Below are positions 1,633 through 45,338 of a stretch of 55,723 bases of DNA, piece after piece. The position numbers and the translations under genes were made by a program. The notes beneath the pieces were generated by a model. That model was not told the origin of the DNA, searched no databases, and saw nothing but the letters and a program-made list of their open reading frames with translations. The number at the start of each line of letters is the position of its first letter. Position 1 is the stretch's first letter. The DNA is from a virus (Duplodnaviria > Caudoviricetes), in the IMG/VR virus record IMGVR_UViG_3300025389_000003, positions 1 through 55,723 of that record; one strand, written 5' to 3'.

Positions 1633-2088
1633 TTAAACGTATGTTTTAAACGACAGTGGGTCATCTGTGACCTTAGCTATCAGTTCGTGGTCGTTGATAG
1701 TCATAAACAAAACGGGTTCGGTGTCGGCTTCTTCACCAGGAACTGGTCTTTCCCACCTGTCTCCACCCCATTTTGGAACCCTTACAAAGTCACCAATCTC
1801 AGCCCATGAGCCTTCTGGCCATGGTTGCATGGTGTCTCTGTTCTTAAACGCAAGCGGACCTATGGCCACGACCTTACCGATCATGTTGTTCCACTTCTCG
1901 TTTTCTTTGGTTTCATCAACGATGATGATTCGTCCTGCGCGTTTTTTAATACGGCGTAATTGAACGATTACACGACCACCATATGGACGTTGTCCAGGGT
2001 CTACATCAGGGAATGCCCATACTAGTTCAACTGGGTCAGGCACGCCCGCATTTCCCTCAATCGTAGGGATTTTCTCTTTTTCACTCAC
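1633..2088 (-). CDS. groES: GroES/Cpn10-like co-chaperonin
   Basis: P.G.RVIV, GRIIIVDE, GKVVAIGP, GDFV..PKWGG, INDHELIAKV match the Cpn10 pattern; GTG start at 2088 follows AAGGAG. Confidence 0.9.
   Translation of the reverse strand: MSEKEKIPTIEGNAGVPDPVELVWAFPDVDPGQRPYGGRVIVQLRRIKKRAGRIIIVDETKENEKWNNMIGKVVAIGPLAFKNRDTMQPWPEGSWAEIGDFVRVPKWGGDRWERPVPGEEADTEPVLFMTINDHELIAKVTDDPLSFKTYV
2022..2034. promoter_or_regulatory. 13-bp palindrome site CTAGTTCAACTGG (inside groES)
   Basis: Perfect match to genome-wide CYAGTTSAACTRG. Confidence 0.8.
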
Positions 2089-2102
2089 TACTCTCTCCTT
2101 AA

Positions 2103-2167
2103 ACACCATAGTTTCAGGTGCATCATCAAAGCGCTTTTCAGCGCGGCCTCAGTCGCGGAGTGCGACT
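2103..2167 (-). ncRNA. Candidate structured cis-regulatory leader of groES (three hairpins)
   Basis: Minus strand AGTCGC-actcc-GCGACT, GCGCT-gaaa-AGCGC, GCACC-tgaaactat-GGTGT directly before the AAGGAG RBS. Confidence 0.45.
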
Positions 2168-8710: not shown

Positions 8711-8719
8711 GTCACACCC

Positions 8720-8732
8720 CCAGTTCAACTAG
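8720..8732. promoter_or_regulatory. 13-bp palindrome site CCAGTTCAACTAG (intergenic, after terL)
   Basis: Perfect match to CYAGTTSAACTRG. Confidence 0.8.
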
Positions 8733-8738
8733 TATTCC

Positions 8739-10181
8739 CTACTGAGAGTAGGGGTTTTGCTTGCTACGTGCGTTGTAGATCTCCGCATCGGTGATGTCCT
8801 CTTGCGTGATCTCCTCCCTTGGAGGCGCGTCAATGCTGATCCACCCCGCGTCCCTTAAATACCTCAACCCTTGGCTGATGCAGTCCACGAACTCATCATG
8901 CGCTGACTCAGGAAATGAACAGATCTGGCTCACCATGCCCTCCGCCCAATCCCTTACGTATCCTTTCCTCACACTGCTCTCAGGTATCCATACGCGACCA
9001 GCCTTGATGATGTTCGCCACAATGGATAGCCTTTGCACCTTATCTGCGCGACCAGGGTTATAAGCCTGAACTGGTATGTGCGCCCTTTGCAAGTCTTGGA
9101 TCAATGATATGCCTGCGGACTTATCCTCAACCAAGACGAGGTCAACCAACTTCCTGTCTTTCCCTTCTCCATATACGACCTCATACTCTTCGAGAACTTT
9201 AGGTCGCAAGTCTGGATACTGTAAGTGTTCTTGCCAACAATCCAAGATGAGTACAGACATCCCCCCATCCAAGGGCTTGAATACTGCCAATGTGATTGAT
9301 CCCGTTGGATCGTTGTATGTTTTATCTGAGGTGGCGCAATCATAGCTTTGGACGATGTATTCAAGCTTAGGGAAAGCCTTACCATCAGGCCATAGCCTGA
9401 ACCAATCCCTCTTGACTATTCCACCCTCCTCGGCGTCGATCAGCTCCGCATAGATCTCCTGTCGGCCTAGCTTCATCCCCTCATAGGACATGATCTGCTT
9501 CTTGAAGTTTTCCGCCAAGTTGTCGATGTTAGCGTATGTGGATGCACGCGTGATGACAACATCATCCCCTTCGCGCCCTACTAGTTCAACTATTAAGTCT
9601 TTAGGTTTAGGAGTTGTTGAGCAAATCAACTTGGTCTTCTTACCCAAGCGCATACCGAACTGTATCTGATCCCACGCTTCCTGAAGGTATTCCCATGCTG
9701 CCAACTCATCTAGCCATCCCCCATGGAACTGTGGCCCCCTGAAGCGCTCGGGCTCGGAGGCTGGGATTCCCTTGATGAACGATCCATTGATCAAATGTAT
9801 CTCATGAAGGCTTGAGTTGTATTTCTCTACTAGTTGAACTGGGATTACATTGAGGAGTCCTGAGTCACCCTCAAAGCATGTTCCCTTCAAGTCACCGCTA
9901 GTCGGAGCCGATACAAGCCATCTCGTGTTGGGATTGTTCCATGCCCATGATGCCAACGTCTCAGCCGATGCCCTAGTCTTCCCTGCTCCACGGCCAGCGA
10001 GCATCAGCCATATGCTCCACCAATCCCCTGATGGCTCAATCTGATGCTTATGCGCCTTCTCCCTCAGCCATTGATACTGCCATAACCACACGATCTGATC
10101 TATGGCGCTGAGCTTGGTGAACTCGGCTTGGGTCTTGGGGTCCATCAGGACCTCGTCAACCAACTCTAGCGTCTGGCTCAT
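8739..10181 (-). CDS. terL: Terminase large subunit
   Basis: Walker A LAGRGAGKT, Walker B GWLDE, CSTTP coupling motif, nuclease SYDCA...VEDKSAG...HDEFVD. Confidence 0.95.
   Translation of the reverse strand: MSQTLELVDEVLMDPKTQAEFTKLSAIDQIVWLWQYQWLREKAHKHQIEPSGDWWSIWLMLAGRGAGKTRASAETLASWAWNNPNTRWLVSAPTSGDLKGTCFEGDSGLLNVIPVQLVEKYNSSLHEIHLINGSFIKGIPASEPERFRGPQFHGGWLDELAAWEYLQEAWDQIQFGMRLGKKTKLICSTTPKPKDLIVELVGREGDDVVITRASTYANIDNLAENFKKQIMSYEGMKLGRQEIYAELIDAEEGGIVKRDWFRLWPDGKAFPKLEYIVQSYDCATSDKTYNDPTGSITLAVFKPLDGGMSVLILDCWQEHLQYPDLRPKVLEEYEVVYGEGKDRKLVDLVLVEDKSAGISLIQDLQRAHIPVQAYNPGRADKVQRLSIVANIIKAGRVWIPESSVRKGYVRDWAEGMVSQICSFPESAHDEFVDCISQGLRYLRDAGWISIDAPPREEITQEDITDAEIYNARSKQNPYSQ
9581..9593. 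promoter_or_regulatory. Palindrome site CTAGTTCAACTAT (inside terL, one mismatch)
   Basis: 12/13 match to CYAGTTSAACTRG. Confidence 0.65.
9830..9842. promoter_or_regulatory. 13-bp palindrome site CTAGTTGAACTGG (inside terL)
   Basis: Perfect match. Confidence 0.8.
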
Positions 10182-10543
10182 TCGGCTTGTCTTGCAAGCT
10201 TAATGTTCTCTAGCAGTTGGCCAAACACATTGATGTTGTGCTCGATCACCACAGGCTGAGTATCTGATCCAGTGTGTTCTGTCCTTGCCAGTTTGGGGAT
10301 GTGATACTCCACTACCGATTGGAACAAATCGAATGCCTTCGCTGGATTCGGTGGTGTGATGTACTCCCCTGTGGGCTCACCCTCCTCATCCAACTTCTGC
10401 ACTCCATTGGCTACCTGATCGAGCCATCCAGTGAGCCTATGAGCGTTTCCATCCACGAATGTGGCTATGGCCTGTCTTGCGTCAGAAGTCGCCTTATTCG
10501 GGCTTCCCAAGGGCCTCCCAGCCCCTTTCTTCGCTGTTCCCAT
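10178..10543 (-). CDS. terS: Terminase small subunit
   Basis: GAGRPLGSPNK N-terminus, EYH.PKL.R.E; directly upstream of and overlapping terL; GGAGG RBS. Confidence 0.75.
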   Translation of the reverse strand: MGTAKKGAGRPLGSPNKATSDARQAIATFVDGNAHRLTGWLDQVANGVQKLDEEGEPTGEYITPPNPAKAFDLFQSVVEYHIPKLARTEHTGSDTQPVVIEHNINVFGQLLENIKLARQAE

Positions 10544-16530: not shown

Positions 16531-16549
16531 ATCTCCTCCATTTCTGAAG

Positions 16550-16566
16550 TCTAACATACGGTTAGA
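16550..16566. promoter_or_regulatory. 17-bp operator TCTAAC-ATACG-GTTAGA overlapping an extended -10 (TGtTAGACT) leftward promoter
   Basis: Perfect inverted repeat upstream of the 16530 gene. Confidence 0.65.
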
Positions 16567-16577
16567 TTTTGTAAACA

Positions 16578-16850: not shown

Positions 16851-17000
16851 AAAGCAAAAAACCCATTGGTGAACGAGCTTTAGGCTTGGTTGCCACATAA
16901 GAGCCTGCGTTGACAGGTCATCTTAGCTTTGACGAAGCCCGCTCACCAATGGGTTTGCGGTTGCGTTTCAACGAACTACAACGGTTTACCAAGCCGTTGA
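16850..17000 (-). ncRNA. c4/CI-antisense-like structured RNA candidate
   Basis: 14-bp perfect stem (16859-16872 with 16943-16956) followed by a U run on minus strand; internal ACCAAGCC complementary to GGCTTGGT in the upstream hairpin (16979-16999). Confidence 0.55.
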
Positions 17001-17007
17001 TGTACAA

Positions 17008-17038
17008 ATTATACCTCTTTGTTGATCTGTGTTGTCAA
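17008..17038 (-). promoter_or_regulatory. Consensus sigma70 hexamers TTGACA-19 nt-TATAAT upstream of the structured RNA
   Basis: Both hexamers perfect; spacer 19 nt; overlaps the primase 3' end. Confidence 0.6.
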
Positions 17039-17893
17039 GTGCTTAGCCTTGCAAAGCATAATCTTTTTTACAACAGAAATGATTCCTCTGTTTTTATGCA
17101 AATCATTCGCGTCCCACCCTTCTTCGTCAGCCATTGTCCATGGCATACCAGTTGAACTAGCAATGCTCTGACCTGTGCCTGACTTGTCGTTGTCCGCAAA
17201 CACATATTTTTTGCCTTGCACCTGATCAATGACATTCAGTAAATTGCTCGCGCTAAAACAAACCACCACTGAGCCCTTCATCCCACACGAACGCATGGCT
17301 TGGTGGACGCTGAGCCCAGTCGCATACCCTTCGACAAACCATATGTCGTCATTCTTCTCAGTTCCTAACCAGTACACAGCATTCTTGGCTCTCATGCCGT
17401 AGAGCATTTTCTTCTCATACTTCATCTCTTCAGGCACAAAGTAGATTTCTTGATAGCCTTGCAGCTTATTGGTCTTCACGTTCCTCATGGGGATCAGTAG
17501 GCTGTTTTTATATACAAAACCTTGTATATCTTTAAAGCCCTTGAACTCAAGATAAGGGTGACTTTCCACCTTAGATATCTTTAAGATATCTTCTGCCCTT
17601 TGAGCCACGACGTCATACTGCTTTTGCTGATCAGACTGCTGAGCACGCCGTTTTTCGAACCACTGGCGCTTTTGTTCTTCCGTCCATGGTTTGGCATGGG
17701 GATCCTCATACCAGATCGCCTTGGCCTCGCCTGACCAATCCATGACCCACCCACGCTGACCATCCCAAAGATAAGCGCCGTTACCAGATTTAGGCTTGGC
17801 AACAGTCCCAGTTCTTTTGATAGAGTCAGATGGGTAAAGTTTACTGGGGTCTATTTCAACCCCATGCGCTCGCGCAAAGTCTATGAAGCTCAT
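17009..17893 (-). CDS. TOPRIM DNA primase
   Basis: HPYL..KG, L.IPM, VEGYATG.S, V.CFSA.NL, ADND..G.G, DAND motifs. Confidence 0.85.
   Translation of the reverse strand: MSFIDFARAHGVEIDPSKLYPSDSIKRTGTVAKPKSGNGAYLWDGQRGWVMDWSGEAKAIWYEDPHAKPWTEEQKRQWFEKRRAQQSDQQKQYDVVAQRAEDILKISKVESHPYLEFKGFKDIQGFVYKNSLLIPMRNVKTNKLQGYQEIYFVPEEMKYEKKMLYGMRAKNAVYWLGTEKNDDIWFVEGYATGLSVHQAMRSCGMKGSVVVCFSASNLLNVIDQVQGKKYVFADNDKSGTGQSIASSTGMPWTMADEEGWDANDLHKNRGIISVVKKIMLCKAKHLTTQINKEV
17148..17160. promoter_or_regulatory. 13-bp palindrome site CCAGTTGAACTAG (inside primase)
   Basis: Perfect match. Confidence 0.8.
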
Positions 17894-18069
17894 TCTATTT
17901 TGCAGTCAAATTCAAAGATTTCATGGAACTCATACATAATGCCCTCTTCCAAGCATCTCATGATGTAGTCCATGGTTGGATTGTCATCGTGTTTGTGTGC
18001 TCGGTTCCATCCTATGATCAAACCATTAGAGACACACTCACGAACGAGGGTGTACATTTTAGGCTTCAT
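17890..18069 (-). CDS. Hypothetical protein (59 aa, not in ORF track)
   Basis: MKPKMYTLVRECVSNG..GWNRAHKHDDNP; ATGA overlaps on both sides. Confidence 0.7.
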   Translation of the reverse strand: MKPKMYTLVRECVSNGLIIGWNRAHKHDDNPTMDYIMRCLEEGIMYEFHEIFEFDCKIE

Positions 18070-18536
18070 TCGTCGTACCCCACGTCATCAAACTGATACG
18101 GCTGAGACATTACTTCTTCTTCAGTGATGGGTTGCTCAATGATCTCCTCGATTGTATGAGCCACCTCACCTACGCCGTGTTCTTTCTCGACGTCACGCGC
18201 AAACTGTCTCCAGTCCATAGAGCGTCTGTATAGAGCAACCAAGCGCTCCTCAGATAGTGGTTCTCTCTGTAGCCTGACGATGAGTTCGTTGGCAGCCTTG
18301 AGTTGCTCATCATAGATGGCCAACAATTCACCCAAAGACTTCAGTTCGTCTTTGTAATAGTCTTTCTTAGAATACTCTTCATCAGAATATTTCTTTTTGG
18401 CTTTCTTGATTCCATCTCTTAGCATGGCCACAATGCCATACTTAAAAACATGGTCATAACCCTCTTTGTCCGAGTTAATAACTACGGTTGCTGATCCGTC
18501 TTCATTGTCTTTGATGTGTTCAAATTCAATCTTCAT
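18066..18536 (-). CDS. Hypothetical protein
   Basis: 156 aa in operon. Confidence 0.65.
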   Translation of the reverse strand: MKIEFEHIKDNEDGSATVVINSDKEGYDHVFKYGIVAMLRDGIKKAKKKYSDEEYSKKDYYKDELKSLGELLAIYDEQLKAANELIVRLQREPLSEERLVALYRRSMDWRQFARDVEKEHGVGEVAHTIEEIIEQPITEEEVMSQPYQFDDVGYDE

Positions 18537-19009
18537 ACTTTCTCTCTTTCTACAATTGGTCTAGCGGTTTTGTTGATGATTGCTTTCATGACGATGTCTG
18601 AAGCGAGCTCGACATCTTTTACGGTTGACGCCTCAAGTTGCGCGTCATGTAGTTCCATCGCAAAGTTGATGGCCTTGAGTTCAGGTCCCTTGGCTATGAA
18701 ATGGTAGTTATGAGCGCCACGTCTAGCGCACTCGTATATAGCATCCTGTGCTAACTTGATTTCATCTGCATAGGTTTCTCCAATCTTGAGTTTCGATAAA
18801 GCTTCACACATGTTTAAAACTGAAATTAAAGTGTCTATGTCGTCTTTGACTGCTTTGCCAGTTCGTAATGCTTCTAGCGCCAAATGATTTTTTAGTTGTA
18901 GTGTCGTCAAAATACTCTTGAGGTCAGTCATCGGTTTCATGCCACTGATCACATAGTTGATCGTGTCGAGGATGACTGGCTTAGGGCGGTACTTAGAACG
19001 CTTTCTCAT
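18533..19009 (-). CDS. Hypothetical protein
   Basis: MRKRSKYRPK...; ATGA overlap with the helicase stop. Confidence 0.7.
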   Translation of the reverse strand: MRKRSKYRPKPVILDTINYVISGMKPMTDLKSILTTLQLKNHLALEALRTGKAVKDDIDTLISVLNMCEALSKLKIGETYADEIKLAQDAIYECARRGAHNYHFIAKGPELKAINFAMELHDAQLEASTVKDVELASDIVMKAIINKTARPIVEREKV

Positions 19010-20526
19010 GATCTTCCCTTCTTCCATGCAATGTTCATTTGTTGAATTTTGTTGTACACATTTCTGTTGATTTCTACATTAGGCGCAGTCGTAAACTTCC
19101 ACTCTGACTCACGCCCCGTGATTTGCTTAAATAAGTGCCACGCACGTCCTGACTGTGTCTCAGGCTTGCTGTGGTGCCTTGCGTAAGTGCAAACTTGATT
19201 CCATAGGTCTTGAGCGCTATTTGCAAGTTTCTTTTTATTGCGTCCCTCGCCAATAAAGATTTCTTGCATATGACCTGGTATCACCTCAGTCATCTGTTTG
19301 CTCACCCTCTCAAATCCACACGACATACAGCGCTTGTGGAAGGGCTTGTAACCACAGCGTGGGCAACCAAATAGCTCAAACTCCTCTTTGACGCGAATCT
19401 TCTTGTCGAGCTTCTCACCGTCGTCTAGCTTCTCTAAGCCATTGAAGTAGATGTCGTTAAAGTCCTCAAAGAACCTCACAATGTTTCCGCTAAAGTCCAA
19501 GAGGTAGCAATCTTTCTTACCAGTCTCAGGGGACGATCTAAGCCCACGCCCCCACATCTGAATAGCTGTAGACAACGATTTCCTTAAAGGTCTTGCGTCA
19601 CAGATACACCCAACGTCAGGCACGTCAAAGCCCTTTGCCAAGGCTTCTACGCTAATCAAAACTTTTAATTCACTATTTGGCTCTCTGTAGTGTTTTAGCA
19701 ACATTTCACGATCTTTGGCGTTGGTGTCACTGGTGAAGACTGCAGCCAACACGCCAGCCTCAATGAACTGACGGCAGAGCTCCTCGCAGTGCCTGATCGT
19801 GGCGCCAAAGACAATCGTCTTGCGGTTCTCGCCAAAACGTTGCCAGTCCTTGACCACGTCACCCACGATCTTGAGTTCGCGCTCCTCGGCAGCTCGATCA
19901 GTCCACTCGCCTCCTGACGTCTCTGCGCCCGTCATATCAGGCTTTTGGCACGAAAAAATCCGCATAGGTACCAACACCCCATGCTGAGTGAGATCGTGCA
20001 TTGTGGTGGCGTTTACGATGTTGGTGAATATCTTTCCCAAGCCTGTAGTAAATGGTGTGGCAGATAGACCAATGACACTAGACTTGGTTGTCTGGGCAAA
20101 ATTTGTCCAACTCTTGTAAGTCGTGTGAGCCTCATCGACCACCAAGACGTCGACCTGTGGCCAAAACTGTCGCTTGGCGATGGTCTGAATACTAGCAATT
20201 TGAAATAGTTCATCTGGTCTTCTCCTCCAGTGATTGGCTTGGATGATGCCGTGGTTGGTCATGCCGTAGCGGTCGGCCACCGCAGACGTTTGGTTGATCA
20301 AGGTAGTCCTGTCGCACAGGAATACTGCACGCTTACCCCTTTGAATGGCTTCGTTGCAGATACGCAACCCAAGGTAAGTCTTTCCAGCGCCCGTAGGCGC
20401 CATGATGATCTGATTCTTGTGCCCTTGCCTAAACCCCTCGCGTAAGGCGTTGTGGGCATCAATCTGAAATTGACGAGGGGGTGGGAATCCATTATCACGC
20501 TCGCTTTGCGCTAGGACGTTGTTCAT
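19006..20526 (-). CDS. Superfamily 2 DExH helicase
   Basis: APTGAGKT, VVDEAH, GLSATP, KGFDVP, QMWGRGLR; C-terminal CPRC..CMSC Zn ribbon. Confidence 0.92.
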   Translation of the reverse strand: MNNVLAQSERDNGFPPPRQFQIDAHNALREGFRQGHKNQIIMAPTGAGKTYLGLRICNEAIQRGKRAVFLCDRTTLINQTSAVADRYGMTNHGIIQANHWRRRPDELFQIASIQTIAKRQFWPQVDVLVVDEAHTTYKSWTNFAQTTKSSVIGLSATPFTTGLGKIFTNIVNATTMHDLTQHGVLVPMRIFSCQKPDMTGAETSGGEWTDRAAEERELKIVGDVVKDWQRFGENRKTIVFGATIRHCEELCRQFIEAGVLAAVFTSDTNAKDREMLLKHYREPNSELKVLISVEALAKGFDVPDVGCICDARPLRKSLSTAIQMWGRGLRSSPETGKKDCYLLDFSGNIVRFFEDFNDIYFNGLEKLDDGEKLDKKIRVKEEFELFGCPRCGYKPFHKRCMSCGFERVSKQMTEVIPGHMQEIFIGEGRNKKKLANSAQDLWNQVCTYARHHSKPETQSGRAWHLFKQITGRESEWKFTTAPNVEINRNVYNKIQQMNIAWKKGRS

Positions 20527-21323
20527 TTTTTACCTTTTAATTTATCAAGTTGTTTCTGAAGTGACTTGACCATCTTGATGGCCTCATTCTTTTCGTTCAT
20601 CAGCCCCACGAACCGCATCTCCATTTGTGCAATCATGTGGTTCAGGCGCTCAATCTCAGCGTGGGCAGTCTTTAAGGCGTCGTCAGAATCCAACAACTTG
20701 AACATCGCCTCTTGATTGGCTTGCATGGTCAGCTCAGCAATCTTGAGTTCTTCCTCGTCAGGAGCTGAACCATCTTGTGGCTCAATACTTTCTAGTTTGA
20801 CGTCATTGCTAGTTGAACTAGTATCTTCCATGCGTTGCCTGAGTTTGTTCTGATAGTGCCTCTCGCGGTTTTCTTTCTGTCTTTCAGCTATTTCAGGGTC
20901 ACGGACGGCAGCCACAAAAGACTCAGACACGTGGCATCGTTTGGCAATTTCATAGTTGGACTTCTTGTACCATTCCTCCCAAGTCAAACACGTCTCAACC
21001 TTATAGCGTCTGTCTCGAATGGACAGTGGCTTGCCGTGGGTTTCATTCGCAATCAAGGCTTTCTCGCGTGCATACTGAAGCGCGCCTGACTCCCACAACA
21101 CGTCAATCTTTTTGATGCCAAGAATCTTGTAGGCGTGATAGCGGTGAAAGCCGTCTGTGAGCCAATATGAAACCCCATCAAATACTAGTTCAACTGGGGG
21201 AAAGACGTTGTCAAGTTTCATGCGCTCGACAATGTGATACACCCAGTCTTGATCAACAACCGTACGCATTTGCGTACCGCCATCAATTCTGATTTCGTCA
21301 ATGTTTATTTGTTTTTTTTGCAT
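20523..21323 (-). CDS. ParB/Srx-fold (CTPase-like) protein with HTH and C-terminal coiled coil
   Basis: I.ID.I..D..TQ.R, PPVELV, arginine patch DGFHRYHA, N..HG.PL, HTH SNYEIAKRCHVSESFVAAVR; GAGG RBS. Confidence 0.8.
   Translation of the reverse strand: MQKKQINIDEIRIDGGTQMRTVVDQDWVYHIVERMKLDNVFPPVELVFDGVSYWLTDGFHRYHAYKILGIKKIDVLWESGALQYAREKALIANETHGKPLSIRDRRYKVETCLTWEEWYKKSNYEIAKRCHVSESFVAAVRDPEIAERQKENRERHYQNKLRQRMEDTSSTSNDVKLESIEPQDGSAPDEEELKIAELTMQANQEAMFKLLDSDDALKTAHAEIERLNHMIAQMEMRFVGLMNEKNEAIKMVKSLQKQLDKLKGKK
20809..20821. promoter_or_regulatory. 13-bp palindrome site CTAGTTGAACTAG (inside ParB-like gene)
   Basis: Perfect match. Confidence 0.8.
21185..21197. promoter_or_regulatory. 13-bp palindrome site CTAGTTCAACTGG (inside ParB-like gene)
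   Basis: Perfect match. Confidence 0.8.
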
Positions 21324-21333
21324 TGTTTCCTCG

Positions 21334-21534
21334 TTACTCAAATAAATCGGGTCTAAGTTCCTTTGCAGTCACTAGCCCTTGGGTTGCTTTCTCAATCTTC
21401 TTGGCCAATTCAGGTGAGGGTCTTTTTGCTTTACGCATCAAAATCCCCAACCACGTCAAAGTGATTCCCAAATACTCAGCCATCTCTTTCTTTGCGCCGT
21501 ACGGCTCGTCTTTGAAATATTCCTTTAAGTTCAT
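21334..21534 (-). CDS. Cro/YdaS-like HTH transcriptional regulator
   Basis: 66 aa; MA..LGI...W, PS..LA..IE.AT.G.VT..ELRPD. Confidence 0.85.
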   Translation of the reverse strand: MNLKEYFKDEPYGAKKEMAEYLGITLTWLGILMRKAKRPSPELAKKIEKATQGLVTAKELRPDLFE

Positions 21535-21564
21535 GTTGCTCCTTTTGTACATTTCATCACAAAG

Positions 21565-21581: not shown

Positions 21582-21650
21582 ATTCGTGTACAATAATTTC
21601 ACGGTCATGTTGATCGGGTTTGTCGGATACGACGTTTTTAAAGGATGTAT

Positions 21651-22292
21651 ATGAGTTTTATTGTTGAAGATACAGGCGGTTCATTTGAGCGTTGCCCATC
21701 AGGAATGCACTTGGCAAGATGCTATCGCATCATTGACATGGGCACACAAAAGTCAGAGTACATGGGTCAAGTCAAGTTCTTGCACAAGATCATGTTGGGT
21801 TGGGAATTGCATGGCATGGACGAATCAGGCAGTCCTCTGACCATGAAGGACGGTCGCCCATTTGGTATTTTTAAGAACTACACATTGAGTTGGTCAGAAA
21901 AGGCTAACTTGAGATTAGACCTACAGTCATGGCGCGGTAAGCCATTCACACAAGAAGAGATGCGCAAATTTGACCTCAAGAACATCTTGGGCGCATGGTG
22001 CATGTTGAACGTGATTGAGCGTGCTGGTCAGAACGGTAAGACTTACACAAACGTGGATGGCGTGACTCCAGTTCCACAAATGATCAAACAGAATGGCTTG
22101 CCTCAAGGCGTCAATAAGCTAGAGATTTTCAACCTCAGCGATCCTGACATGACCATCTTTGAGTCATTGAGTGATTACTTGAAGACAAAGATCATGGCGT
22201 CTCCTGAGTGGCAGAAACAGGCTAAGACCAAGCCAACCACAGAGACTTACGTAGACACTTCATCCGACATGGATGACGACATCCCATTTTGA
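21651..22292 (+). CDS. Single-stranded DNA-binding protein (phage type)
   Basis: G.H.ARC..IID.GTQ, YTLS..EKANL...L.SWRG; acidic C-terminus DDDIPF. Confidence 0.75.
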   Translation: MSFIVEDTGGSFERCPSGMHLARCYRIIDMGTQKSEYMGQVKFLHKIMLGWELHGMDESGSPLTMKDGRPFGIFKNYTLSWSEKANLRLDLQSWRGKPFTQEEMRKFDLKNILGAWCMLNVIERAGQNGKTYTNVDGVTPVPQMIKQNGLPQGVNKLEIFNLSDPDMTIFESLSDYLKTKIMASPEWQKQAKTKPTTETYVDTSSDMDDDIPF

Positions 22293-22300
22293 GGTAAAAC

Positions 22301-23095
22301 ATGACAACAATAATAGCTAGATCAGCAGAATCCGTTCACTGGTATCGCGCAGAGGATGGAGCACCTCAGTACACCGTCAAGGCAAAGGACGGCTCAGACC
22401 GCCCTACAACGCTCAGGGACGCACGAACCATGAACTTGGTACCCTCGGTCACCACGGTTCTAAAAGTCGCCTCTAAGCCCGGTCTTGAGGTTTGGAAGAA
22501 TGAGCAAATGTTGCTCGCAGCATTAACCCTTCCCAAGAAGCCTCACGAGAGCGAACAGGAATTCATTGCTCGCATTGTAGCTGACTCAAAAGAGACGGCT
22601 AAGAAAGCAGCCGAGCGTGGAACTCGTGTTCATGAGTCGATTGAGGCGTGGTACGAAGGCGCTCGCATGGACATCGAGCACCGTGACATTGCTGAGGCTT
22701 TTGAGAAGAAAGTGTTCGACCACTTTGGCACCCATCCCTTCCAAGAATGGAAGACTGAGACGGCCTTTGCATCAAACTTGGGTTATGGCGGTAAGGTTGA
22801 CCTTTACTGCTTGCCTGATGAGACAGCACCCCTTGGGATTGTTATCGACGCCAAAACAAAAGAATTTGGCCCAGATGATAAGGTCGAAGGGTATGACGAG
22901 CACATGATGCAGTTGGCGGCCTACAGACACGGTTTAGGCATCCCACACGCGCGTTGTGCGAACGTCTTTGCGTCGGTCTCGTCCCCAGGTCTTATTAAAG
23001 TCGTGGAGTGGTCTGAGGAGGATCTCAGAAGGGGTTGGGAAATGTTCCAACACCTATTGGGTTATTGGAAAATCAAAAATAATTTTGGAGGATGA
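22301..23095 (+). CDS. PD-(D/E)XK exonuclease
   Basis: PSVTTVL, A.RGT.VH, E, YGG.VDL, IDAKT, QLAAY. Confidence 0.85.
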   Translation: MTTIIARSAESVHWYRAEDGAPQYTVKAKDGSDRPTTLRDARTMNLVPSVTTVLKVASKPGLEVWKNEQMLLAALTLPKKPHESEQEFIARIVADSKETAKKAAERGTRVHESIEAWYEGARMDIEHRDIAEAFEKKVFDHFGTHPFQEWKTETAFASNLGYGGKVDLYCLPDETAPLGIVIDAKTKEFGPDDKVEGYDEHMMQLAAYRHGLGIPHARCANVFASVSSPGLIKVVEWSEEDLRRGWEMFQHLLGYWKIKNNFGG

Positions 23096-23096
23096 T

Positions 23097-23324
23097 ATGG
23101 AGTTAAATGCAAAACAAGTCGGAGAAGCTTTCCGCACAGTCATGTTGGAAGAAAACCACAACTTCCTTGAGGACGATTTGGTTCTCATGGCCAATGCTTT
23201 TGTAAAGTTTGCAGAGCCTTTTATCAGGACTGACGAACTGAACAAATGTGTTGAAATAGCAACTAACCTCAACAGAAATGTTGGAGAGAAACTATTTGAG
23301 GTGAGAAGCAATGTGGGTTATTAA
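23097..23324 (+). CDS. Hypothetical protein
   Basis: 75 aa from ATG 23097 with GGAGG RBS. Confidence 0.7.
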   Translation: MELNAKQVGEAFRTVMLEENHNFLEDDLVLMANAFVKFAEPFIRTDELNKCVEIATNLNRNVGEKLFEVRSNVGY

Positions 23325-23382: not shown

Positions 23383-23408
23383 AAACCCCAGTTCAACTGG
23401 GGTTTTTT
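23383..23408. terminator. Terminator between convergent operons, built around the 13-bp palindrome (CCAGTTCAACTGG, 23388-23400)
   Basis: AAACCCCAGTT-C-AACTGGGGTTTTTT. Confidence 0.75.
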
Positions 23409-27173: not shown

Positions 27174-29507
27174 TTATCCTTTCGCCATCTTGAGATAGTC
27201 AAGAGGTGATTTTGCTTTCGGTGGTATTTTTGTGTCAGGAGCACTTCTCTTGTGTGCGCGTAGCTCTTCACGCATTTTATCCAATAATTTCGATCCTAGC
27301 TTGTTGTCTCCGCCACCTATGGCAGTCACAAAACTAGCTGGAAACACATACTCTCCATCAGCAATCTTGGCGGGGACAGGATTCCCACCAACTGCCATTT
27401 TGTGAGGTATTTCGTGATGAAACTTACTCAAAACTTGTGCGCCTGCTTTGCTTGATCCGTCACCAAAAGAGGCTACCGTGTCAGCATCCATCACATAGTC
27501 TCCATCGTGGAGCATGGCTGGTATATCGTCGCTTTGGCCAGTTCCTTTGCCGTTGGCATAGTATCCAGTCAAGCCTGTGATGAATTCAGGATTGTGGCCC
27601 TTTGGAGCCGCTTCCTTATAGTGGTCAGGCAAACCCCCATGCGCTAAAGCATTAGTGGGTTGCGCGTCCCTTCTGATGCCTTGCTTTAGATATTTTAAAG
27701 GACTTAAAGTTGCCGCCTGTCCTATGCCAATTGATCCTTGAACTGGTGCAGCACTTAATAATCTTGGGGCAGATATGTTGGCACTTGGTTGATTGGCTAA
27801 AAAAGCTTTGTATGCATCTGATAATGCAGTTCCACCATCGGCCATAGTTAAAAACTTTTCAGCTACTTCAGGTTGATTCATCTTAATCTCTTTATTAAGT
27901 TCTGCCAAATCAGCTTGGGATACTTGTGTGGGCTGTTCTTGCGCTTGCGTAGGCTGAGACATAACTTTTGCCAACTCAGGATCAAGTTGATCAAAAATTT
28001 GTTTCAGGGCCTGTAAGTGAGCAGGATTTCCATACACAGGAGCGCCTGCCAACATGGTCGCAACCATGGGCAACCCAGTTGAACTAGTAGTTCCACCTGA
28101 CAGGGGTGAACTTGATGCCGTTGAAGTGGTTGAAGTTGATGTCTTGGTGGCAGGGGTTGTTGTTTTTGTGGTTGTTGGAGTTTTTGTTGTGTCAGTAACA
28201 ACTGCAGGGGTTACCACATTGTCAGTTGTATCTTTTTTTGCAACAACAGTAACTGGATTCAATTTAACAGCATTTGGGTCTTCAACAACAGTATTGTCAC
28301 TAACTGTGTTGTCAATTCCACTAGAACCAACAACAGTAACTGGTTGTAATTGTGTCGCATTAGGATCAGCTATGACCGCGTCATCAGGAGTTGTTGCGTT
28401 TTTCTTGGCCGTAATAGTAACTTTTCCAAGAGGACTGTTTGCATCACTTGTATTCGTAGAGCTTACTGTGTAATCAGTTGGATCAGTGCTTTTTGCAGTG
28501 ATTTGAACATTGCTAAGTGGACTATCTGAGCTTGGGCTAGTAGCAACAGTTTGACTTGTATCTGTGGCTAAAGGTGAGGTAGTTGTAGAAGTTTGGTCTG
28601 TAGGTGTAGATACATTACCCTGTGAGACTTGGTTTTTATACTCTTCACGCCCTGCGGCTATGGCCAAGTTAATTGCCACTTGAGTGGCTGGCTGACCAGC
28701 CAACACGCCACCTATGATTTTGGAAACAGCAATTTGTCCTGAAGGACTTAAATTCTGAATGCCTGGTATTTGATCAGTGATTGCAGATACGCCACCACTG
28801 ATCCCACCTGCCATCAATGCAGTTAAAGGATCTGCTTTACCTTGGGATGAAATTTCTGCTGCAGTCAAAGATCTGGCGGCTCCAGCACCTGCGCCTTGAA
28901 GTGCTTCTCCCAACAAACTAGGGTCTTCGCCTAAAGTTGATCCTATGGCCTTACCTACAGTTTGACCTGCCGCATTGCCTGCAGTGGAGGCCAGATACGA
29001 AAGCGCTCCAGATGTAGCTGCTTTTGTTAAGTCTCCTGTCTGCGCATAAGTATCGGCTGCAGAGACATAAGGCAATAAGGTTGGGTCGATGATTGAAGCC
29101 GCAATCATTGGGATTGGACCTAAATCCCTAGCGATGTTTCCAATAAAACCGCCCTTAGATCCGCCTGTGTATGTGACTTGCGTGCTTGGATCGGTAACGG
29201 GTTGCACTGCTCCCGTATTGGGATCAACACGAACAAATGTGTTCATGGTTCCACCAGTAGAACCAGACATAATTGCGTATACGTTTGGCGCTACTTGTTG
29301 GATATTTCCATTGATGAAATTACCTTGTCCATCAATTAAACCTGTTGATGTAATTGAATTTCCGTTGTCATCAACGCCACCAGTAATCGTGCCGATCTTG
29401 GCTTGACCAGTTTGGATAGCGTTATAGGTATCATCAAAGGTCTGACTAGCCGTAGACCAAATGTCTTGCGCTAATGGTGACGATGATGCGTTGGCTGTTG
29501 TGCTCAT
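27174..29507 (-). CDS. Large virion/ejection protein with duplicated C-terminal 'G.G..SD.IPA.L.DGEYV' module
   Basis: 777 aa; Gly/Ala hydrophobic region, Thr-rich linker, MADGG/LAHGG/MAVGG motifs. Confidence 0.6.
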   Translation of the reverse strand: MSTTANASSSPLAQDIWSTASQTFDDTYNAIQTGQAKIGTITGGVDDNGNSITSTGLIDGQGNFINGNIQQVAPNVYAIMSGSTGGTMNTFVRVDPNTGAVQPVTDPSTQVTYTGGSKGGFIGNIARDLGPIPMIAASIIDPTLLPYVSAADTYAQTGDLTKAATSGALSYLASTAGNAAGQTVGKAIGSTLGEDPSLLGEALQGAGAGAARSLTAAEISSQGKADPLTALMAGGISGGVSAITDQIPGIQNLSPSGQIAVSKIIGGVLAGQPATQVAINLAIAAGREEYKNQVSQGNVSTPTDQTSTTTSPLATDTSQTVATSPSSDSPLSNVQITAKSTDPTDYTVSSTNTSDANSPLGKVTITAKKNATTPDDAVIADPNATQLQPVTVVGSSGIDNTVSDNTVVEDPNAVKLNPVTVVAKKDTTDNVVTPAVVTDTTKTPTTTKTTTPATKTSTSTTSTASSSPLSGGTTSSTGLPMVATMLAGAPVYGNPAHLQALKQIFDQLDPELAKVMSQPTQAQEQPTQVSQADLAELNKEIKMNQPEVAEKFLTMADGGTALSDAYKAFLANQPSANISAPRLLSAAPVQGSIGIGQAATLSPLKYLKQGIRRDAQPTNALAHGGLPDHYKEAAPKGHNPEFITGLTGYYANGKGTGQSDDIPAMLHDGDYVMDADTVASFGDGSSKAGAQVLSKFHHEIPHKMAVGGNPVPAKIADGEYVFPASFVTAIGGGDNKLGSKLLDKMREELRAHKRSAPDTKIPPKAKSPLDYLKMAKG
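28075..28087. promoter_or_regulatory. 13-bp palindrome site CCAGTTGAACTAG
   Basis: Perfect match. Confidence 0.8.
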
Positions 29508-31158: not shown

Positions 31159-31664
31159 CAAAGTCGATTCCCCTTAGCAGAATTTTCTGCACCAGTAATA
31201 ACTTGCAAATTCCATGGAACATGCAAACCAGAAACCGTTTTTCCTTGGAGAGGAACAATATGGTCAACCTCGTAGTCTAAGCCTATTGAACGAAGCGAAG
31301 CGCAATACTTGTAAATGCATTCCATCTCAAAATCTTGGCCTGCATTTAACCAAAATGGCGTTCGTTTTAATCTTGCGTATCTTCTTTTTGCTGTGTTGAT
31401 ATTTACTAAATCAACATTAAGTTTTTTCCATTTTTTTCTATGTTCTTGATGTTTATCTTTATTTTCTTGATTCCATTTTATTGCTGTTGCAATTTTTTTA
31501 TCTGGTTTACTTGCATAAAAATTTTTATCATGCTCAAGGCCACAATCTACACACATCCAATTAGAAACTCTTCTTTCGGATACATGACCTTTAACACATG
31601 GTTTACCAGTAAAGTATCTGATTAAACCTTGTTTTTTTGCATCTAATCTTGAAATTATCATCAT
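31155..31664 (-). CDS. HNH homing endonuclease
   Basis: YFTGKPC..GH..ER...C..C, VDHIVPL.G..VSGLHVPWNLQVI...EN..K.N. Confidence 0.9.
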   Translation of the reverse strand: MMIISRLDAKKQGLIRYFTGKPCVKGHVSERRVSNWMCVDCGLEHDKNFYASKPDKKIATAIKWNQENKDKHQEHRKKWKKLNVDLVNINTAKRRYARLKRTPFWLNAGQDFEMECIYKYCASLRSIGLDYEVDHIVPLQGKTVSGLHVPWNLQVITGAENSAKGNRLW

Positions 31665-33652
31665 GGGTTTCCAGTACCTCTGACATCACCAGTTTCAATG
31701 CTAAGAATAATTTTTCCGACTTGGTAGTCACCATTAAAAGTATTGCTCTCAAACCTTAAACGCATCTCACGACGCTGTTCACGCATGTCAATTTTAAGAG
31801 TTGTTGGATCAAATGTATAAGGGTCTGATGGGCGGTCTATGTCATCCGCATAACCCTTACCCGTCACAATCACATCCATCTGTCCAGTTTGGATGAAGTC
31901 AGGCTCAACGCGCTCGCATCGTGTCCACATGTTCTCGCCTGGTCCTTGAGTTGAGCCAACTAGCCCTGCACTTGATCCCAAAACAGGTGTCTCAAATGCT
32001 GAATAAATTGCATCAACATGAGTCAAGTATGTTTGATTTTTACCAGTCTCATGTTGCCAAATCGTGTAGCCGTTTACAGTCATCAACTCGCCGGACACGC
32101 TTGTACTTGTAGGATTGTAAACTGTATAGGTTCCTGTGCCTCCAGTACCGCTTCCAAGCGCTGTAATCACCATTTGGTCAGGAACACCTGCGCCTTGGAT
32201 GATTTGTCCTACAGCCAAAGATCCAAAAACCATCGAAGAGACTGTCAATGTAGTGCCTGAAACCGACCCTTGAAACTCAACAATTGTGTTGGGATTGTAG
32301 TCACCCCATATGGGTTTGGGAAACACTTCAGTAAACCACCCTGCTGATCTTTGCGCTCCAGGTGCAGATCCTGCGTCATACCACACCTTTTCACGCACGT
32401 TATAGATGATGGCATCGGTACATTCAGTGGCGTCACCTCTTGGATAGAACCACCAAATTTCACCAAAACGAGGCACTTTACTGGCCCAAACCTTTTGGCG
32501 TTGAGAAAGGTTGATGTTGTCAAAGAAATAGTTTTGGTTCATGGTATTGGGTATCTCTTGTACAACACCGTTGTACATCAAAAAACGATCAACACCTGCC
32601 CAGTAATAAATTCCATCGTACTCGATCACAGAGCTAGAGGACATAATTGAACTCTGTTGAGTGATCAAGTCATAGCGCCAATAGAACGTAGAAGACGTAG
32701 TTCCTGTGGTCACCGTAGTGGGTGTGTAGGACACGCGTATCACGCTATCAAGCGACCAAAACAGCCCGGCAGGAGAGGTAGTACCACCACGCAGTGGCAA
32801 GCCCTTCACAATCTTTGTAGAGGCCACGTTGTTGGCATTTGCGTCAGCGCTAGTCCAGTTGTTGAAGTCGCCTGCAGCGCAGTTTTGTATCAAACCATTG
32901 TTGCCATAAACAAACAAGTAAGGGTATAACATTACAACTCCACCGCTTACCGAGATGTTGTTGTCAAACGTCAATGTGGCTGAGCCTGATGCCGTCGCAG
33001 GCAAACTCAAGACAACCGTCCAAACCCCAGCCACTAAAGAAGACGAGACTATGGTTGTGCCTGCTTGTATGCCTGTGCCTGAAACCGATACACCAGGCCC
33101 CATGGCCACATTAGTAGTCGCAAACGTAACACTAGTTGAACTAGTAGTGGTAGTTCCTACTGCGGTAAAAACACCGATTGGGGCTAATGATGTGCCTGTA
33201 AATTGGCCATACAAGGGACGAGTATTGGTGGTACTTGTGATGTACTGAAGATTCTGACCGGGGTGCGCAATCAACTGTAATGTTCCACCGCCCGTGGAGT
33301 CATACCCGATGTCAAACTGCCAAAGATTGGTTGCGTTGGGTGTGAAATAAGAAGAACTAATTGAGAATGGAGTTGGGCCAGTTCCAATCGCTGTCACGTT
33401 GTTGGTCACCCATTGCTGAAGACCTGCACTGTATCCTGAGATGATATAGTTCAAGCCATTTGTGGCGCTCATGATAAGCCCTCTTGAGGCTCCAGAAGCA
33501 TTCAAAAATGCGCCTGAGTAACCGCCTATCTTTCTAGGCAATCCACGCTGAAAGCGCACCCACTGGCCGTCCACGTAGGAAGCTGCAGCGAACTGCGTAC
33601 CATCGCGCTGAATCCCTGCGGGTACCGTAAGTGATAGGACTTTAGCGGTCAA
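31661..33652 (-). CDS. Tail nozzle / DNA-stabilisation protein (P22 gp10-like, tentative)
   Basis: 663 aa; DG.WVRF.RG.P.KIGG, F.EIWWFYP, YN..E..WY, R...R...LRFES. Confidence 0.6.
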   Translation of the reverse strand: MTAKVLSLTVPAGIQRDGTQFAAASYVDGQWVRFQRGLPRKIGGYSGAFLNASGASRGLIMSATNGLNYIISGYSAGLQQWVTNNVTAIGTGPTPFSISSSYFTPNATNLWQFDIGYDSTGGGTLQLIAHPGQNLQYITSTTNTRPLYGQFTGTSLAPIGVFTAVGTTTTSSTSVTFATTNVAMGPGVSVSGTGIQAGTTIVSSSLVAGVWTVVLSLPATASGSATLTFDNNISVSGGVVMLYPYLFVYGNNGLIQNCAAGDFNNWTSADANANNVASTKIVKGLPLRGGTTSPAGLFWSLDSVIRVSYTPTTVTTGTTSSTFYWRYDLITQQSSIMSSSSVIEYDGIYYWAGVDRFLMYNGVVQEIPNTMNQNYFFDNINLSQRQKVWASKVPRFGEIWWFYPRGDATECTDAIIYNVREKVWYDAGSAPGAQRSAGWFTEVFPKPIWGDYNPNTIVEFQGSVSGTTLTVSSMVFGSLAVGQIIQGAGVPDQMVITALGSGTGGTGTYTVYNPTSTSVSGELMTVNGYTIWQHETGKNQTYLTHVDAIYSAFETPVLGSSAGLVGSTQGPGENMWTRCERVEPDFIQTGQMDVIVTGKGYADDIDRPSDPYTFDPTTLKIDMREQRREMRLRFESNTFNGDYQVGKIILSIETGDVRGTGNP
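33132..33144. promoter_or_regulatory. 13-bp palindrome site CTAGTTGAACTAG
   Basis: Perfect match; extends to the 15-bp palindrome ACTAGTTGAACTAGT. Confidence 0.8.
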
Positions 33653-44136: not shown

Positions 44137-45338
44137 GTCACATTAGTTCCTGTTAAGAGCCATTGAGTTGTTGCAATCTTGATGCAGTTTGCTACACCAT
44201 ATTGCGCTAATGTTCTTGATCCTGTGCTACCACCCTGTGCCCATGTCAATGTGTCAGAGTTTATAGCAATTGTTACATTGCTTGCAGACATATTGATAAA
44301 TTGAATGACTGTGCCTAGAGGATATGCTACAGAAGCATTGGCAGCAATTGTAAATGTACGTGCGTTGGCGTCCGATGATGGGTGAAAAATACAGTACCCT
44401 GCATCACCCAATACAGTTGTGTATGCGGCTGATTGACTGTTTTGTGGAATGCTCAAATAACCAAGACTTGCACTAACAGGAGGCAATGTCATGGTGGTGC
44501 TATCTGTACCAGTAAAAGTGATTGAATTGTTAGCTGTTAATGTTTTTCCATCAGCTATGGTCAAAGTTGAGCCTGTAGCTGGTGCAGTCAAAGTAACTTT
44601 ATTAATTGTTGTTGCTGATGCAACGCCCAAAGTTGGAGTTGTCAAAGTTGGGCTTGTAGCCAAGACAATAGAACCCGAGCCTGTAGTTGTATTGCCTAAA
44701 GCTGTGACTGTACCGCTTGTTGGTAGTGTCAAAGATGTTGTTGCTGTTGTTGTTAGTGTTGTGGCAAAAGCTCCTGAAGTAGTTAAATTACCACCAAGAG
44801 ATAATGAGCCAGAACCAAAGGTTAAAGAAGAGCCAGAACCAGTTGTGGTTAACAATGATCCAGTAGTTCCTGATGCAACGTAAGTTCCAGAGGGAATGAA
44901 CGCATACTTACCCCATGAACCTGCAGCAGTTGAGTTGTCTTCTACCCAAAGATAAACCATATTGCCTGGGTAAACTGTAGTCACCAAAGTAGATGAGTTA
45001 TCGTTTACGGTAACGTTACCAGTCGCATCGTTATCAATGATAAACACTTGACCTGCAGGCAAAGTATTTGCAGCAGGCAATTGAACTGTCTGTGTTGTTG
45101 ACCCACTGATCTTTTGGATTCGTGTGGAAAGAGCAGTTAATGTGGTGGTAGTTGCGGCTGCAGTTGTTACTGTTGAGCCACCAATTAAATTGACTACGCC
45201 ACTAGAATTTTTATAAAAAATACGGCCGTCTGCATAATTGATTGCAAGTTCACCGTTGCCTAAATTACCAGATGAAGGCGTGTTGGTTGATGTACCACTG
45301 TTGTACAAATATATTGGGGTATAGCCTGATGCTGACAT
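44133..45338 (-). CDS. Tail fibre protein
   Basis: N-terminal P....L..GELAIN..DG.IFYK module; C-terminal IPQNSQ..AYT.VL.D...YP.GT. Confidence 0.7.
   Translation of the reverse strand: MSASGYTPIYLYNSGTSTNTPSSGNLGNGELAINYADGRIFYKNSSGVVNLIGGSTVTTAAATTTTLTALSTRIQKISGSTTQTVQLPAANTLPAGQVFIIDNDATGNVTVNDNSSTLVTTVYPGNMVYLWVEDNSTAAGSWGKYAFIPSGTYVASGTTGSLLTTTGSGSSLTFGSGSLSLGGNLTTSGAFATTLTTTATTSLTLPTSGTVTALGNTTTGSGSIVLATSPTLTTPTLGVASATTINKVTLTAPATGSTLTIADGKTLTANNSITFTGTDSTTMTLPPVSASLGYLSIPQNSQSAAYTTVLGDAGYCIFHPSSDANARTFTIAANASVAYPLGTVIQFINMSASNVTIAINSDTLTWAQGGSTGSRTLAQYGVANCIKIATTQWLLTGTNVT

Follow-up and report, generated by a model that had tools for sequence, protein, structure and literature searches.

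A family-conserved palindrome inside an orphan ParB/KorB-like phage gene upstream of helicase and primase genes: a possible DNA-recognition subunit

Introduction

What does a ParB-type protein do in a phage that encodes no ParA, and what is the role of the palindromes that lie inside its gene? This question is raised by an orphan ParB/KorB-like gene of an uncultured phage (Duplodnaviria; Caudoviricetes), IMG/VR record IMGVR_UViG_3300025389_000003, whose complete 55.7-kb genome was analysed over its whole length of 55,723 nucleotides (hereafter, the window). The original prediction described the gene as a ParB-CTPase with a helix-turn-helix (HTH), located in the replication operon and carrying two copies of a dispersed palindrome, and it proposed that a ParB clamp had been repurposed as an initiator, helicase loader or genome organiser. 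Our computational analysis supports the predicted fold, the sites and their conservation, the covariation between HTH and site, and the synteny with helicase and primase genes. We tentatively favour a role for the protein as the sequence-specific DNA-recognition subunit of a helicase-primase module, a reading that we hold at somewhat short of an even chance.

Orphan ParB-fold proteins are common in phages according to a survey of the ParB/Srx fold, the available excerpt of which mentions neither the internal and TerL-adjacent sites of the present family nor any connection of it with replication (PMC12704722); this and the other papers cited here by PMC number were drawn on in excerpt. According to these excerpts, few orphan ParB folds have a known function, namely KorB, BisD, VirB, Noc and the activators of 5mYOX enzymes (PMC12704722, PMC11790492, PMC12409273, PMC13229309). 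In the open-access literature, supplements aside, we found no account of the family, of its internal site, of a site adjacent to the gene for the terminase large subunit (TerL), or of a link to replication. The family-conserved internal palindrome, the TerL-downstream site, the pairing of residue 135 with base -3 and the helicase synteny are new here.

Results

The palindrome in the window and in homologous genes

The palindrome AGTTNAACT was found in 11 copies in the window, compared with 1.52 expected, and none of 100 shuffles reached 11. Its core is AGTTSAACT, and the 12-mer AGTTSAACTAGT occurs at nine places. The extended consensus is (C/A)C(C/T)AGTT-S-AACTAGTA, many sites joining a CCCAGTT half to an ACTAGTT half (positions in Table 1). 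Nine of the 11 sites are intragenic; of the remaining two, one lies in the 28-nt spacer behind TerL (8722) and the other in a terminator-like hairpin, where the core may represent chance reuse or a dual-purpose site. Two sites lie within the ParB-like gene, as originally noted. The peptides encoded by these two differ, as do their contexts (TSSTS, linker; PVELV, N-domain), so that what is repeated is the DNA sequence. The second of them was otherwise seen only in a 98%-identical relative (L011).

An RNA hairpin was considered for the palindrome and rejected, as the symmetry extends up to a single central base and leaves no room for a loop. It is also disfavoured by the strictly Watson-Crick symmetry of the arms and by the one base that tracks a protein residue. 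A host or restriction motif was likewise rejected, since the palindromes of relatives differ and follow their own ParB-like HTH.

The family is very large. Among 960 candidates from a word index, 528 proteins matched at E ≤ 1e-3, and an exhaustive single-sequence search returned 11,054 cluster representatives at the same threshold. A survey of homologues for self-contained palindromes, suggested alongside the original prediction, was made on the best 80 loci of 578 confirmed viral matches and was positive. A perfect palindrome (arms of at least 6, at most one central base) occurred at nucleotides 380-600 of the gene in 60 of the 80 viral homologues (background, 0.53 per kb), and one with arms of at least 8 occurred in 50 of them (background, 0.066 per kb). 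These palindromes were always located in the linker-coding part after the HTH, and their sequence differed by lineage yet stayed palindromic, with arm types that include TACTAATC, TACTAGTT, TACTAGTC, GAGTAATT, GTGGAATC, GTGGAGTT, CCAGTT, GTCGGTT and CTCACTTGAAAC. Some lineages carried two to four internal copies, often about 33 bp apart. Homologues in bacterial genomes, with 566 matches, were surveyed at 78 loci, the closest from metagenome-assembled genomes (MAGs) of Burkholderiales and others from Planctomycetes, Chloroflexi, Cyanobacteria and Alphaproteobacteria; an internal palindrome was present in 34 of the 78 with arms of at least 6 and in 28 with arms of at least 8. Dispersal of the sites was also seen in relatives. 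The palindrome TAATCNGATTA occurred 5, 4, 4, 4 and 2 times in the records of five relatives, while reversed-pattern controls gave 0, and AGTTNAACT occurred 9 times in one relative's 27.6-kb record.

Covariation of the HTH with the palindrome

Covariation was assessed on 53 distinct pairs of HTH and half-site. When residue 135 was Pro, base -3 was A in 23 of 23 pairs, and when it was Ser or Thr, base -3 was G in 21 of 26 (Fisher P 3e-9, relatedness not corrected for). This switch between Pro and Ser/Thr recurred in Gln, His and Lys backgrounds at residue 134. All 266 columns of the protein were scanned, with columns 168-172 discounted as they are encoded by the palindrome itself. The top column was 135 for base -3, 134 for base -5 and 124 for bases -6 to -8. 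Mutual information between residue 135 and base -3 amounted to 0.88 of 1.00 bit, whereas the best control columns for the same base at the same loci reached 0.38 in Cro, 0.42 in the helicase, 0.52 in a protein resembling single-stranded DNA-binding protein (SSB) and 0.45 in the primase. Because the control proteins co-vary with bases -5 to -8 as well, only base -3 constitutes specific evidence. The covariation of residue 135 with this base argues strongly that the ParB-like protein reads the palindrome, to which it would bind through its HTH.

Fold of the ParB-like protein

The AlphaFold model of the protein (mean pLDDT 93.5) contains the predicted HTH and C-terminal coiled coil in addition to a ParB/Srx N-domain. 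The highest ranks in Foldseek were ParB, Noc and KorB (best E about 1e-7), and ParB, Noc, KorB and Srx structures matched at E 7e-8 to 1e-3. Comparison with Spo0J, KorB and Noc had been proposed with the original prediction. VIA-align ranked KorB best (8qa9_B, Z 12.1), with 162 residues aligned over model residues 2-172, i.e., the N-domain and the DNA-binding domain, followed by Noc (Z 11.1) and MxParB (Z 10.5), and the root-mean-square deviation of the N-domain was about 2 Å over 93-95 residues. PHROG 1033, 'ParB-like partition protein', matched residues 6-140 (E 1.8e-18), and a profile built from 97 relatives matched M. xanthus ParB (7o0n, E 1.3e-8), sulfiredoxin (E 2.3e-6) and Spo0J (1vz0, E 1.3e-5). 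Pfam gave no match for the protein even at E ≤ 10, ParB_N (PF02195) included; PF02195 was matched by 26 of the 97 relatives at E ≤ 0.01 (best, 3.3e-6). At E ≤ 1, the sole NCBIfam match was a chance one to xseA, with TIGR00180 (ParB/RepB/Spo0J partition protein) unmatched. The protein is thus a remote member of the ParB/Srx superfamily by profile and fold, not by Pfam model.

The absence of a ParA-type ATPase, the basis for calling the gene an orphan, was confirmed in two ways. There was no ParA among the 58 open reading frames (ORFs) scanned with PHROGs, and a six-frame search of the complete genome with PF13614 and PF01656 gave no match, whereas 14 of 14 control genomes matched. The protein starts directly with the ParB-N fold, with no N-terminal extension, and the motif (L/F/I)G(K/R)G(L/F/I), given as ParA-binding in an excerpt of PMC12704722, does not occur in its sequence.

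Three further searches concern the protein. A search of longer proteins for fusions found two; a Dam methylase domain is present in one of them, and neither contains a helicase. At rank 28 in BFVD stood a fragment of a 'Helicase ATP-binding domain-containing protein', which we note as a lead only. PADLOC gave no defence-system match for the ParB-like protein.

The nucleotide pocket

The arginine patch DGFHRYHA spans residues 57-64 and contains the GxxR phosphate-binding motif of the original prediction (G58-F-H-R61), which aligns with G92 and R95 of MxParB. Q18, R20, G58, R61 and N93 are invariant in the 97 relatives, and D57, F59, H60 and H96 are conserved in at least 90% of them. In the HMMER alignment to MxParB, Q18, R20, R61 and N93 correspond to Q52, R54, R95 and N127. 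In MxParB, the excerpted account assigns phosphate contacts to R54, R95 and N127, cytosine contacts to S68 and G73, and hydrolysis to Q52 and E93 (PMC13229309). The hydrolysis glutamate E93 is replaced by F59 in the phage protein, R94 by H60 and the box III glutamate (E126) by A92, so that GFHRYH stands where a canonical ParB has GERRxR, the glutamate of which is needed for CTP hydrolysis (PMC11790492, in excerpt). Counted on the alignment, S68 and G73, which contact the cytosine, map to R34 and N39, and these positions are not conserved. The ParB fold of the predicted 'ParB-CTPase' stands, but the label 'CTPase' is not established: Phe takes the place of the GERRxR glutamate and Ala that of the box III glutamate, and the positions for cytosine contact vary. 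The ParB/Srx fold is described as able to bind CTP, ATP or GTP (PMC12704722, in excerpt). The conserved residues point to a working nucleotide pocket in which hydrolysis would be altered or absent.

Synteny with helicase and primase

The gene occupies the predicted slot between a cro-type gene and the helicase and primase genes, and its stop codon TGA (20523-20525) shares the tetranucleotide ATGA with the helicase start, as had been noted. In the 80 viral loci, a helicase homologue was found downstream of the ParB-like gene in 78, the two exceptions having longer ParB-like genes, and the helicase match started 3 nt before the ParB stop in 41. A primase homologue was present in 69, several of the misses having little downstream DNA. 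Given the translational coupling of the gene to that of an SF2 helicase, which is followed by a primase gene, a DNA-recognition subunit of this module appears to be the most likely role of its product.

Among the closer relatives (L012-L065), the helicase was 72-83% identical, compared with 37-57% for the ParB-like protein. Within the latter, in the close group, the C-terminal domain (CTD) was best conserved (55%) and the linker least (26%). In distant prophages, of Planctomycetes and others, the ParB-like gene was again followed by an SF2 helicase gene. Several distant loci had AAA_24 and DUF669 genes upstream, one locus had an additional PrimPol, and in others the ParB-like gene was followed by PrimPol-DUF3987.

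In four loci (L016, L019, L028 and L042), helicase homology began about 0.9-1.2 kb past the stop of the ParB-like gene, without overlap; these have an insertion either between the two genes or in the 5' part of the helicase gene. A different arrangement was seen in two large contigs from MAGs of Burkholderiales and Comamonadaceae (L106:5989-6822 and L110:5983-6795), where a ParB-like gene, 42-44% identical and with its own palindrome, directly follows a tyrosine integrase gene, with no helicase or primase within 6 kb. The L110 contig continues with an AbiEi/AbiEii pair. These two are possibly satellite-like or island elements, limited to the recognition protein and its site.

No other initiator was found in the phage genome, and Phage_rep_O (PF04492) had no match in its six frames. 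The product of 21645..22292 (+) matched the NCBIfam entry 'phage replication initiation protein, NGO0469 family' (E 1.8e-63) and was rejected as an initiator, being an OB-fold, SSB-like protein. Its model matches PrgE and SSBs, and in the Atlas it lies closest to clusters named DUF2815 and DUF669. The last residues are a conserved DDDIPF, which we take to be the C-terminal tip motif of SSBs, and the gene adjoins a PD-(D/E)XK exonuclease gene (22301-23095). The product may be an SSB-like recombination protein, in which case the NGO0469 family name is misleading.

A second conserved site downstream of TerL

When four full records were mapped, a site was found directly after TerL in three lineages, with three different palindromes. 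This position was then surveyed in a separate set of 80 TerL loci (L180-L259), 78 of which had enough downstream DNA. A perfect palindrome of the same family was present in 66 of the 78, almost always starting 1-6 nt after the stop codon (background, 0.62 per kb), and 24 of these 66 sites consisted of two to three copies, 26-29 bp apart. At least three further TerL-downstream types are imperfect, including the 8719..8733 site of the 55.7-kb genome. For the six contigs present in both sets, the arms downstream of TerL were the same as those inside the ParB-like gene in four, and the other two had no site after TerL. In L184 (2935-3020) and 23 other TerL loci, the whole stretch from the TerL stop to a small conserved gene is taken up by two or three tandem units of 26-29 bp, each with the palindrome of its lineage.

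Genome context

IMG/VR classes the genome as having direct terminal repeats and as 100% complete. The contig ends, 1-67 and 55657-55723, are identical, and a 67-nt 'direct terminal repeat' of this kind is typical of circular assembly and is not evidence of physical ends. The minus strand carries nearly all genes, and the short operon at 21645-23324 runs rightward, divergently from the Cro/YdaS-like gene. The features under study are collected in Table 1.

Table 1. Genes, protein domains and palindromic sites of the window. Domain positions are those of the coding nucleotides.
Feature	Position	Strand	Remarks
Orphan ParB/KorB-like gene	20523..21323	-	266 aa; ORF 20523..21341; ATG at 21323 preceded by GAGGA
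N-domain (ParB/Srx, alpha-beta)	21033-21323		aa 1-97
HTH bundle	20898-21032		aa 98-142; HTH helices 123-130, 134-141
Helix and disordered linker	20757-20897		aa 143-189; long helix 143-170; low-confidence linker 171-189
Coiled-coil CTD	20526-20756		aa 190-266; helices 190-212, 216-265
Internal palindrome CTAGTT-G-AACTAG	20809..20821		core 20811-20819; codons 168-172; linker after HTH; family-conserved position
Second internal site ACTAGTT-C-AACTGGG	21184..21198		core 21187-21195; N-domain coding part (FPPVELVF)
TerL-downstream site CCCAGTT-C-AACTAGT	8719..8733		spacer between TerL stop and 88-aa gene; second family-conserved position
Bidirectional terminator-like hairpin AAACCCCAGTT-C-AACTGGGGTTT (CCCCAGTT-C-AACTGGGG)	23383..23405		palindrome core as stem; T runs on both strands; between convergent operons
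Dispersed site	2021..2035		inside ORF 1633..2109
Dispersed site	9580..9594		inside TerL
Dispersed site	9829..9843		inside TerL
Dispersed site	17147..17161		inside primase gene
Dispersed site	28074..28088		inside ORF 27174..29507
Dispersed site, perfect ACTAGTT-G-AACTAGT	33131..33145		inside ORF 31661..33652
Dispersed site	45752..45766		inside ORF 45338..48082
Cro/YdaS-like HTH gene	21334..21552	-	first gene of leftward operon
SF2 helicase	19006..20526	-	ResIII + Helicase_C; C-terminal zinc ribbon; PHROG 16, E 7.9e-82
Toprim DNA primase	17009..17893	-	two small genes of unknown function between helicase and primase
Terminase large subunit (TerL)	8739..10181	-	conserved site directly 3' of stop codon
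Candidate small terminase gene	10178..10543		overlaps TerL start
Small 88-aa gene 3' of TerL	ATG at 8709		28-nt spacer from TerL stop

Other genes and regions of the window are of separate interest. A short C5 cytosine DNA methyltransferase (236 aa) is encoded at 12408-13118 (-) and matches PF00145 (E 1.2e-32); no link between it and the palindromes was made. The only oxygenase of the phage is a 2OG-Fe(II) enzyme (PF13759, 41677..42390), which is not of the TET/JBP type. Homing-type endonuclease genes (endonuclease VII-like, GIY-YIG, HNH) lie among the structural genes at 31155-31664, 34875-35384 and 48454-49092. Contigs from four metagenome runs, aligned to positions 1-20000, showed no molecule ends. 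Over 13300-16000, their summed depth was 2-5 times higher, with many alternative joints and loose ends, which suggests a mosaic, hypervariable early region common to co-occurring phages.

Discussion

The ParB-like protein is strongly predicted to bind DNA; it may further have a role in replication, behave as a clamp and hold a nucleotide in the pocket described above. If it is the DNA-recognition subunit of the helicase-primase module, a dimer would recognise the odd palindrome through HTH residues 124 and 134-135, and the protein would mark phage DNA at the dispersed sites and bring helicase and primase there, by analogy with lambda O and SPP1 G38P, which use origins inside their own genes. 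It may do so as a nucleotide-gated clamp that binds a nucleoside triphosphate (NTP) and hydrolyses it poorly or not at all. The synteny suggests an initiator or helicase-loader role in particular.

Several observations weigh against this reading. The internal palindrome is also present in homologues with no helicase nearby (L106 and L110, which lie by integrases, and L123 and L152), and because it is present there, the site in the gene appears to be a property of the ParB-like module and not of replication as such. The internal site has no AT-rich unwinding element next to it: the AT profile of the gene, like the mean over 60 relatives, shows nothing beyond the palindrome's own AT content. SF2 helicases are not typical replicative helicases. 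A perfect internal palindrome is missing in 20 of the 80 viral homologues and in the cultured Acidovorax phage AP1, whose record is outside the 80-locus set. The loci of our surveys are related, so that their counts are not independent events, and bases -5 and -7 follow phylogeny equally in the control proteins. Finally, an origin does not account for a second conserved site after the terminase gene or for the location of most others in structural genes; the conserved TerL-downstream site fits a KorB- or BisD-like organiser or regulator at least as well as an initiator.

Indeed, the protein could be a sliding clamp of the KorB/BisD kind that serves as a global regulator or genome organiser, an explanation that we consider possible but rather unlikely. 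Such a clamp would load at the palindromes, close on nucleotide and slide, controlling transcription of the almost unidirectional genome or compacting or marking the DNA, and its link to helicase and primase would amount to shared early expression only. It has a precedent in KorB and BisD, which act from distal or intragenic sites (PMC11790492, PMC12409273, in excerpt). It is also consistent with KorB being the best structural match, with the invariant nucleotide pocket, with the dispersal of the sites (mostly inside genes) and with the missing AT-rich element, and the conserved site or array after TerL would stand ahead of the next late genes. A regulator of this kind explains the TerL arrays, the dispersed intragenic sites and the helicase-less homologues that retain the internal site better than a helicase-primase subunit does. 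Shared early expression alone is, however, insufficient to account for an adjacency to helicase seen in 78 of 80 loci, often with overlapping codons and across phyla. In addition, the catalytic glutamate is missing, so that turnover of the clamp would need another route, and no KorA- or BisC-like partner was recognised in the phage, where no search aimed at them was made; the upstream Cro/YdaS-like gene is a possible candidate for a partner regulator. Recognition of DNA for helicase and primase and regulation by a clamp are not mutually exclusive.

A bolder form of the helicase-primase proposal, which we regard as doubtful, is that the protein is the first example of a large, undescribed class of origin-recognition proteins built on the ParB nucleotide-switch fold. 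In that case, a hydrolysis-poor, NTP-gated clamp would load at palindromic origins (the one in its own linker-coding part and others, such as the post-TerL array) and hand the SF2 helicase and the primase onto phage DNA, with HTH residues 134-135 setting origin specificity by a simple, reprogrammable code.

The remaining explanations fare less well. A centromere-binding protein for plasmid-like maintenance or partition, working with a host ParA or by a ParA-independent route and using the palindromes as dispersed centromeres, is improbable. Phage N15 has dispersed centromere sites, and membership of the ParB family, the dispersed palindromes and the lack of an integrase among the 58 ORFs scanned would suit such a function; against it stand the lack of ParA in the complete genome and of the ParA-binding motif in the protein, the lack of a recognisable repressor or lysogeny module, and the position of the gene in a helicase-primase operon. 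More improbable still is a recognition protein for packaging, with the tandem palindromes by TerL as a pac-like site. In its favour, 66 of 78 relatives have a site or array directly after TerL, with two to three copies in 24, and the 55.7-kb genome has three sites in or beside TerL. However, the ParB-like gene is early, belongs to the replication operon and is situated at a distance of 11 kb from TerL, there is a candidate small terminase gene, the most conserved site lies inside the ParB-like gene itself, and metagenome contigs bridge position 8722, though contigs cannot show the ends of molecules. Least probable of all is an activator or targeting factor of a DNA-modifying enzyme, as in 5mYOX-ParB pairs and ParB-methyltransferase fusions: ParB-dependent thymine dioxygenases exist in phages (PMC13229309, in excerpt), genes for a 2OG-Fe(II) oxygenase and a C5 methyltransferase are present in this phage, and a longer relative carries a fused Dam methylase domain, but the 5mYOX ParBs lack a DNA-binding domain and lie beside their dioxygenase, whereas the phage protein has an HTH, its neighbours are helicase and primase, and the oxygenase is of another type and 20 kb away.

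The family is of interest under either of the two leading explanations, since it is very large and comes with a ready-made cis-site, and the pairing of residue and base provides a natural table of specificities. As the guide of the helicase-primase module, the protein would represent a new kind of origin recognition in phage replication, and the transfer of the site together with its gene among mosaic phage genomes would be explained. As a clamp of the KorB/BisD type, it would be an instance, in a phage, of control over long distances exerted from loading sites within genes. In both cases, the post-terminase array is an unexplained conserved cis-element in a widespread freshwater phage group.

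Comparison with known systems

KorB of the IncP-1 plasmid RK2 is the closest structural match, and both proteins consist of an N-terminal domain, a DNA-binding domain, a long flexible linker and a CTD. RK2 is about 60 kb, and the KorB operator is a 13-bp odd palindrome. KorB alone has a ParA partner (IncC), an N-terminal IncC-binding peptide, GERRxR with the catalytic glutamate, and the clamp-locker KorA, whereas the phage protein has GFHRYH, a coiled-coil CTD, near-obligate synteny with SF2 helicase and primase, and a site inside its own coding sequence. Sites are dispersed on both elements, those of KorB being about a dozen, some far from promoters; the excerpt describes 12 sites on RK2, a disordered linker, a CTD, and silencing of promoters from distal sites (PMC11790492).

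BisD of ICEclc is likewise an orphan ParB-like protein of a mobile element with an odd palindrome within genes. Its site, as given in the excerpt, has a central N and 11-bp arms and lies inside genes, where BisD loads and from which it spreads along transcription (PMC12409273). BisD differs in that it keeps GxxR and ENxxR, hydrolyses CTP, and has a C-terminal activator domain that acts with BisC (PMC12409273, in excerpt). The phage protein has other residues at the catalytic positions and has helicase and primase genes as partners.

With canonical ParB proteins (Spo0J, MxParB, P1 ParB), the phage protein shares the ParB/Srx N-domain, the pocket of Q, R, GxxR and N, the HTH and the dimeric architecture. 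The spo0J gene of B. subtilis contains a parS site. Unlike these systems, the phage has no ParA, its protein has no ParA-binding motif, and the site is an odd palindrome instead of a 16-bp parS. The phage ParB activators associated with 5mYOX are also orphan ParB folds with an N-domain and a C-terminal dimerisation domain, repurposed from segregation (PMC13229309, in excerpt). They have no DNA-binding domain and lie beside a TET/JBP-type dioxygenase (PMC13229309, in excerpt), in contrast to the HTH and the helicase and primase neighbours of the present protein.

Replication initiators offer the remaining parallels, in the placing of the sites. SPP1 G38P has an origin inside its own gene and binds a second, distant site. 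The sites of lambda O likewise lie midway in its own coding sequence, where ori-lambda is situated (PMC8508860, in excerpt); in the present family they lie in the linker-coding part, sometimes in two to four phased copies. In both cases, the next gene has a helicase function, and the DNA-recognition part diverges faster than its partner. The phage protein differs from lambda O in having no sequence relation to it, a ParB fold, no AT-rich region by its sites, 11 dispersed sites, and an SF2 helicase in place of DnaB. The layout of the locus suggests that a ParB-type switch has been reused to organise phage DNA replication.

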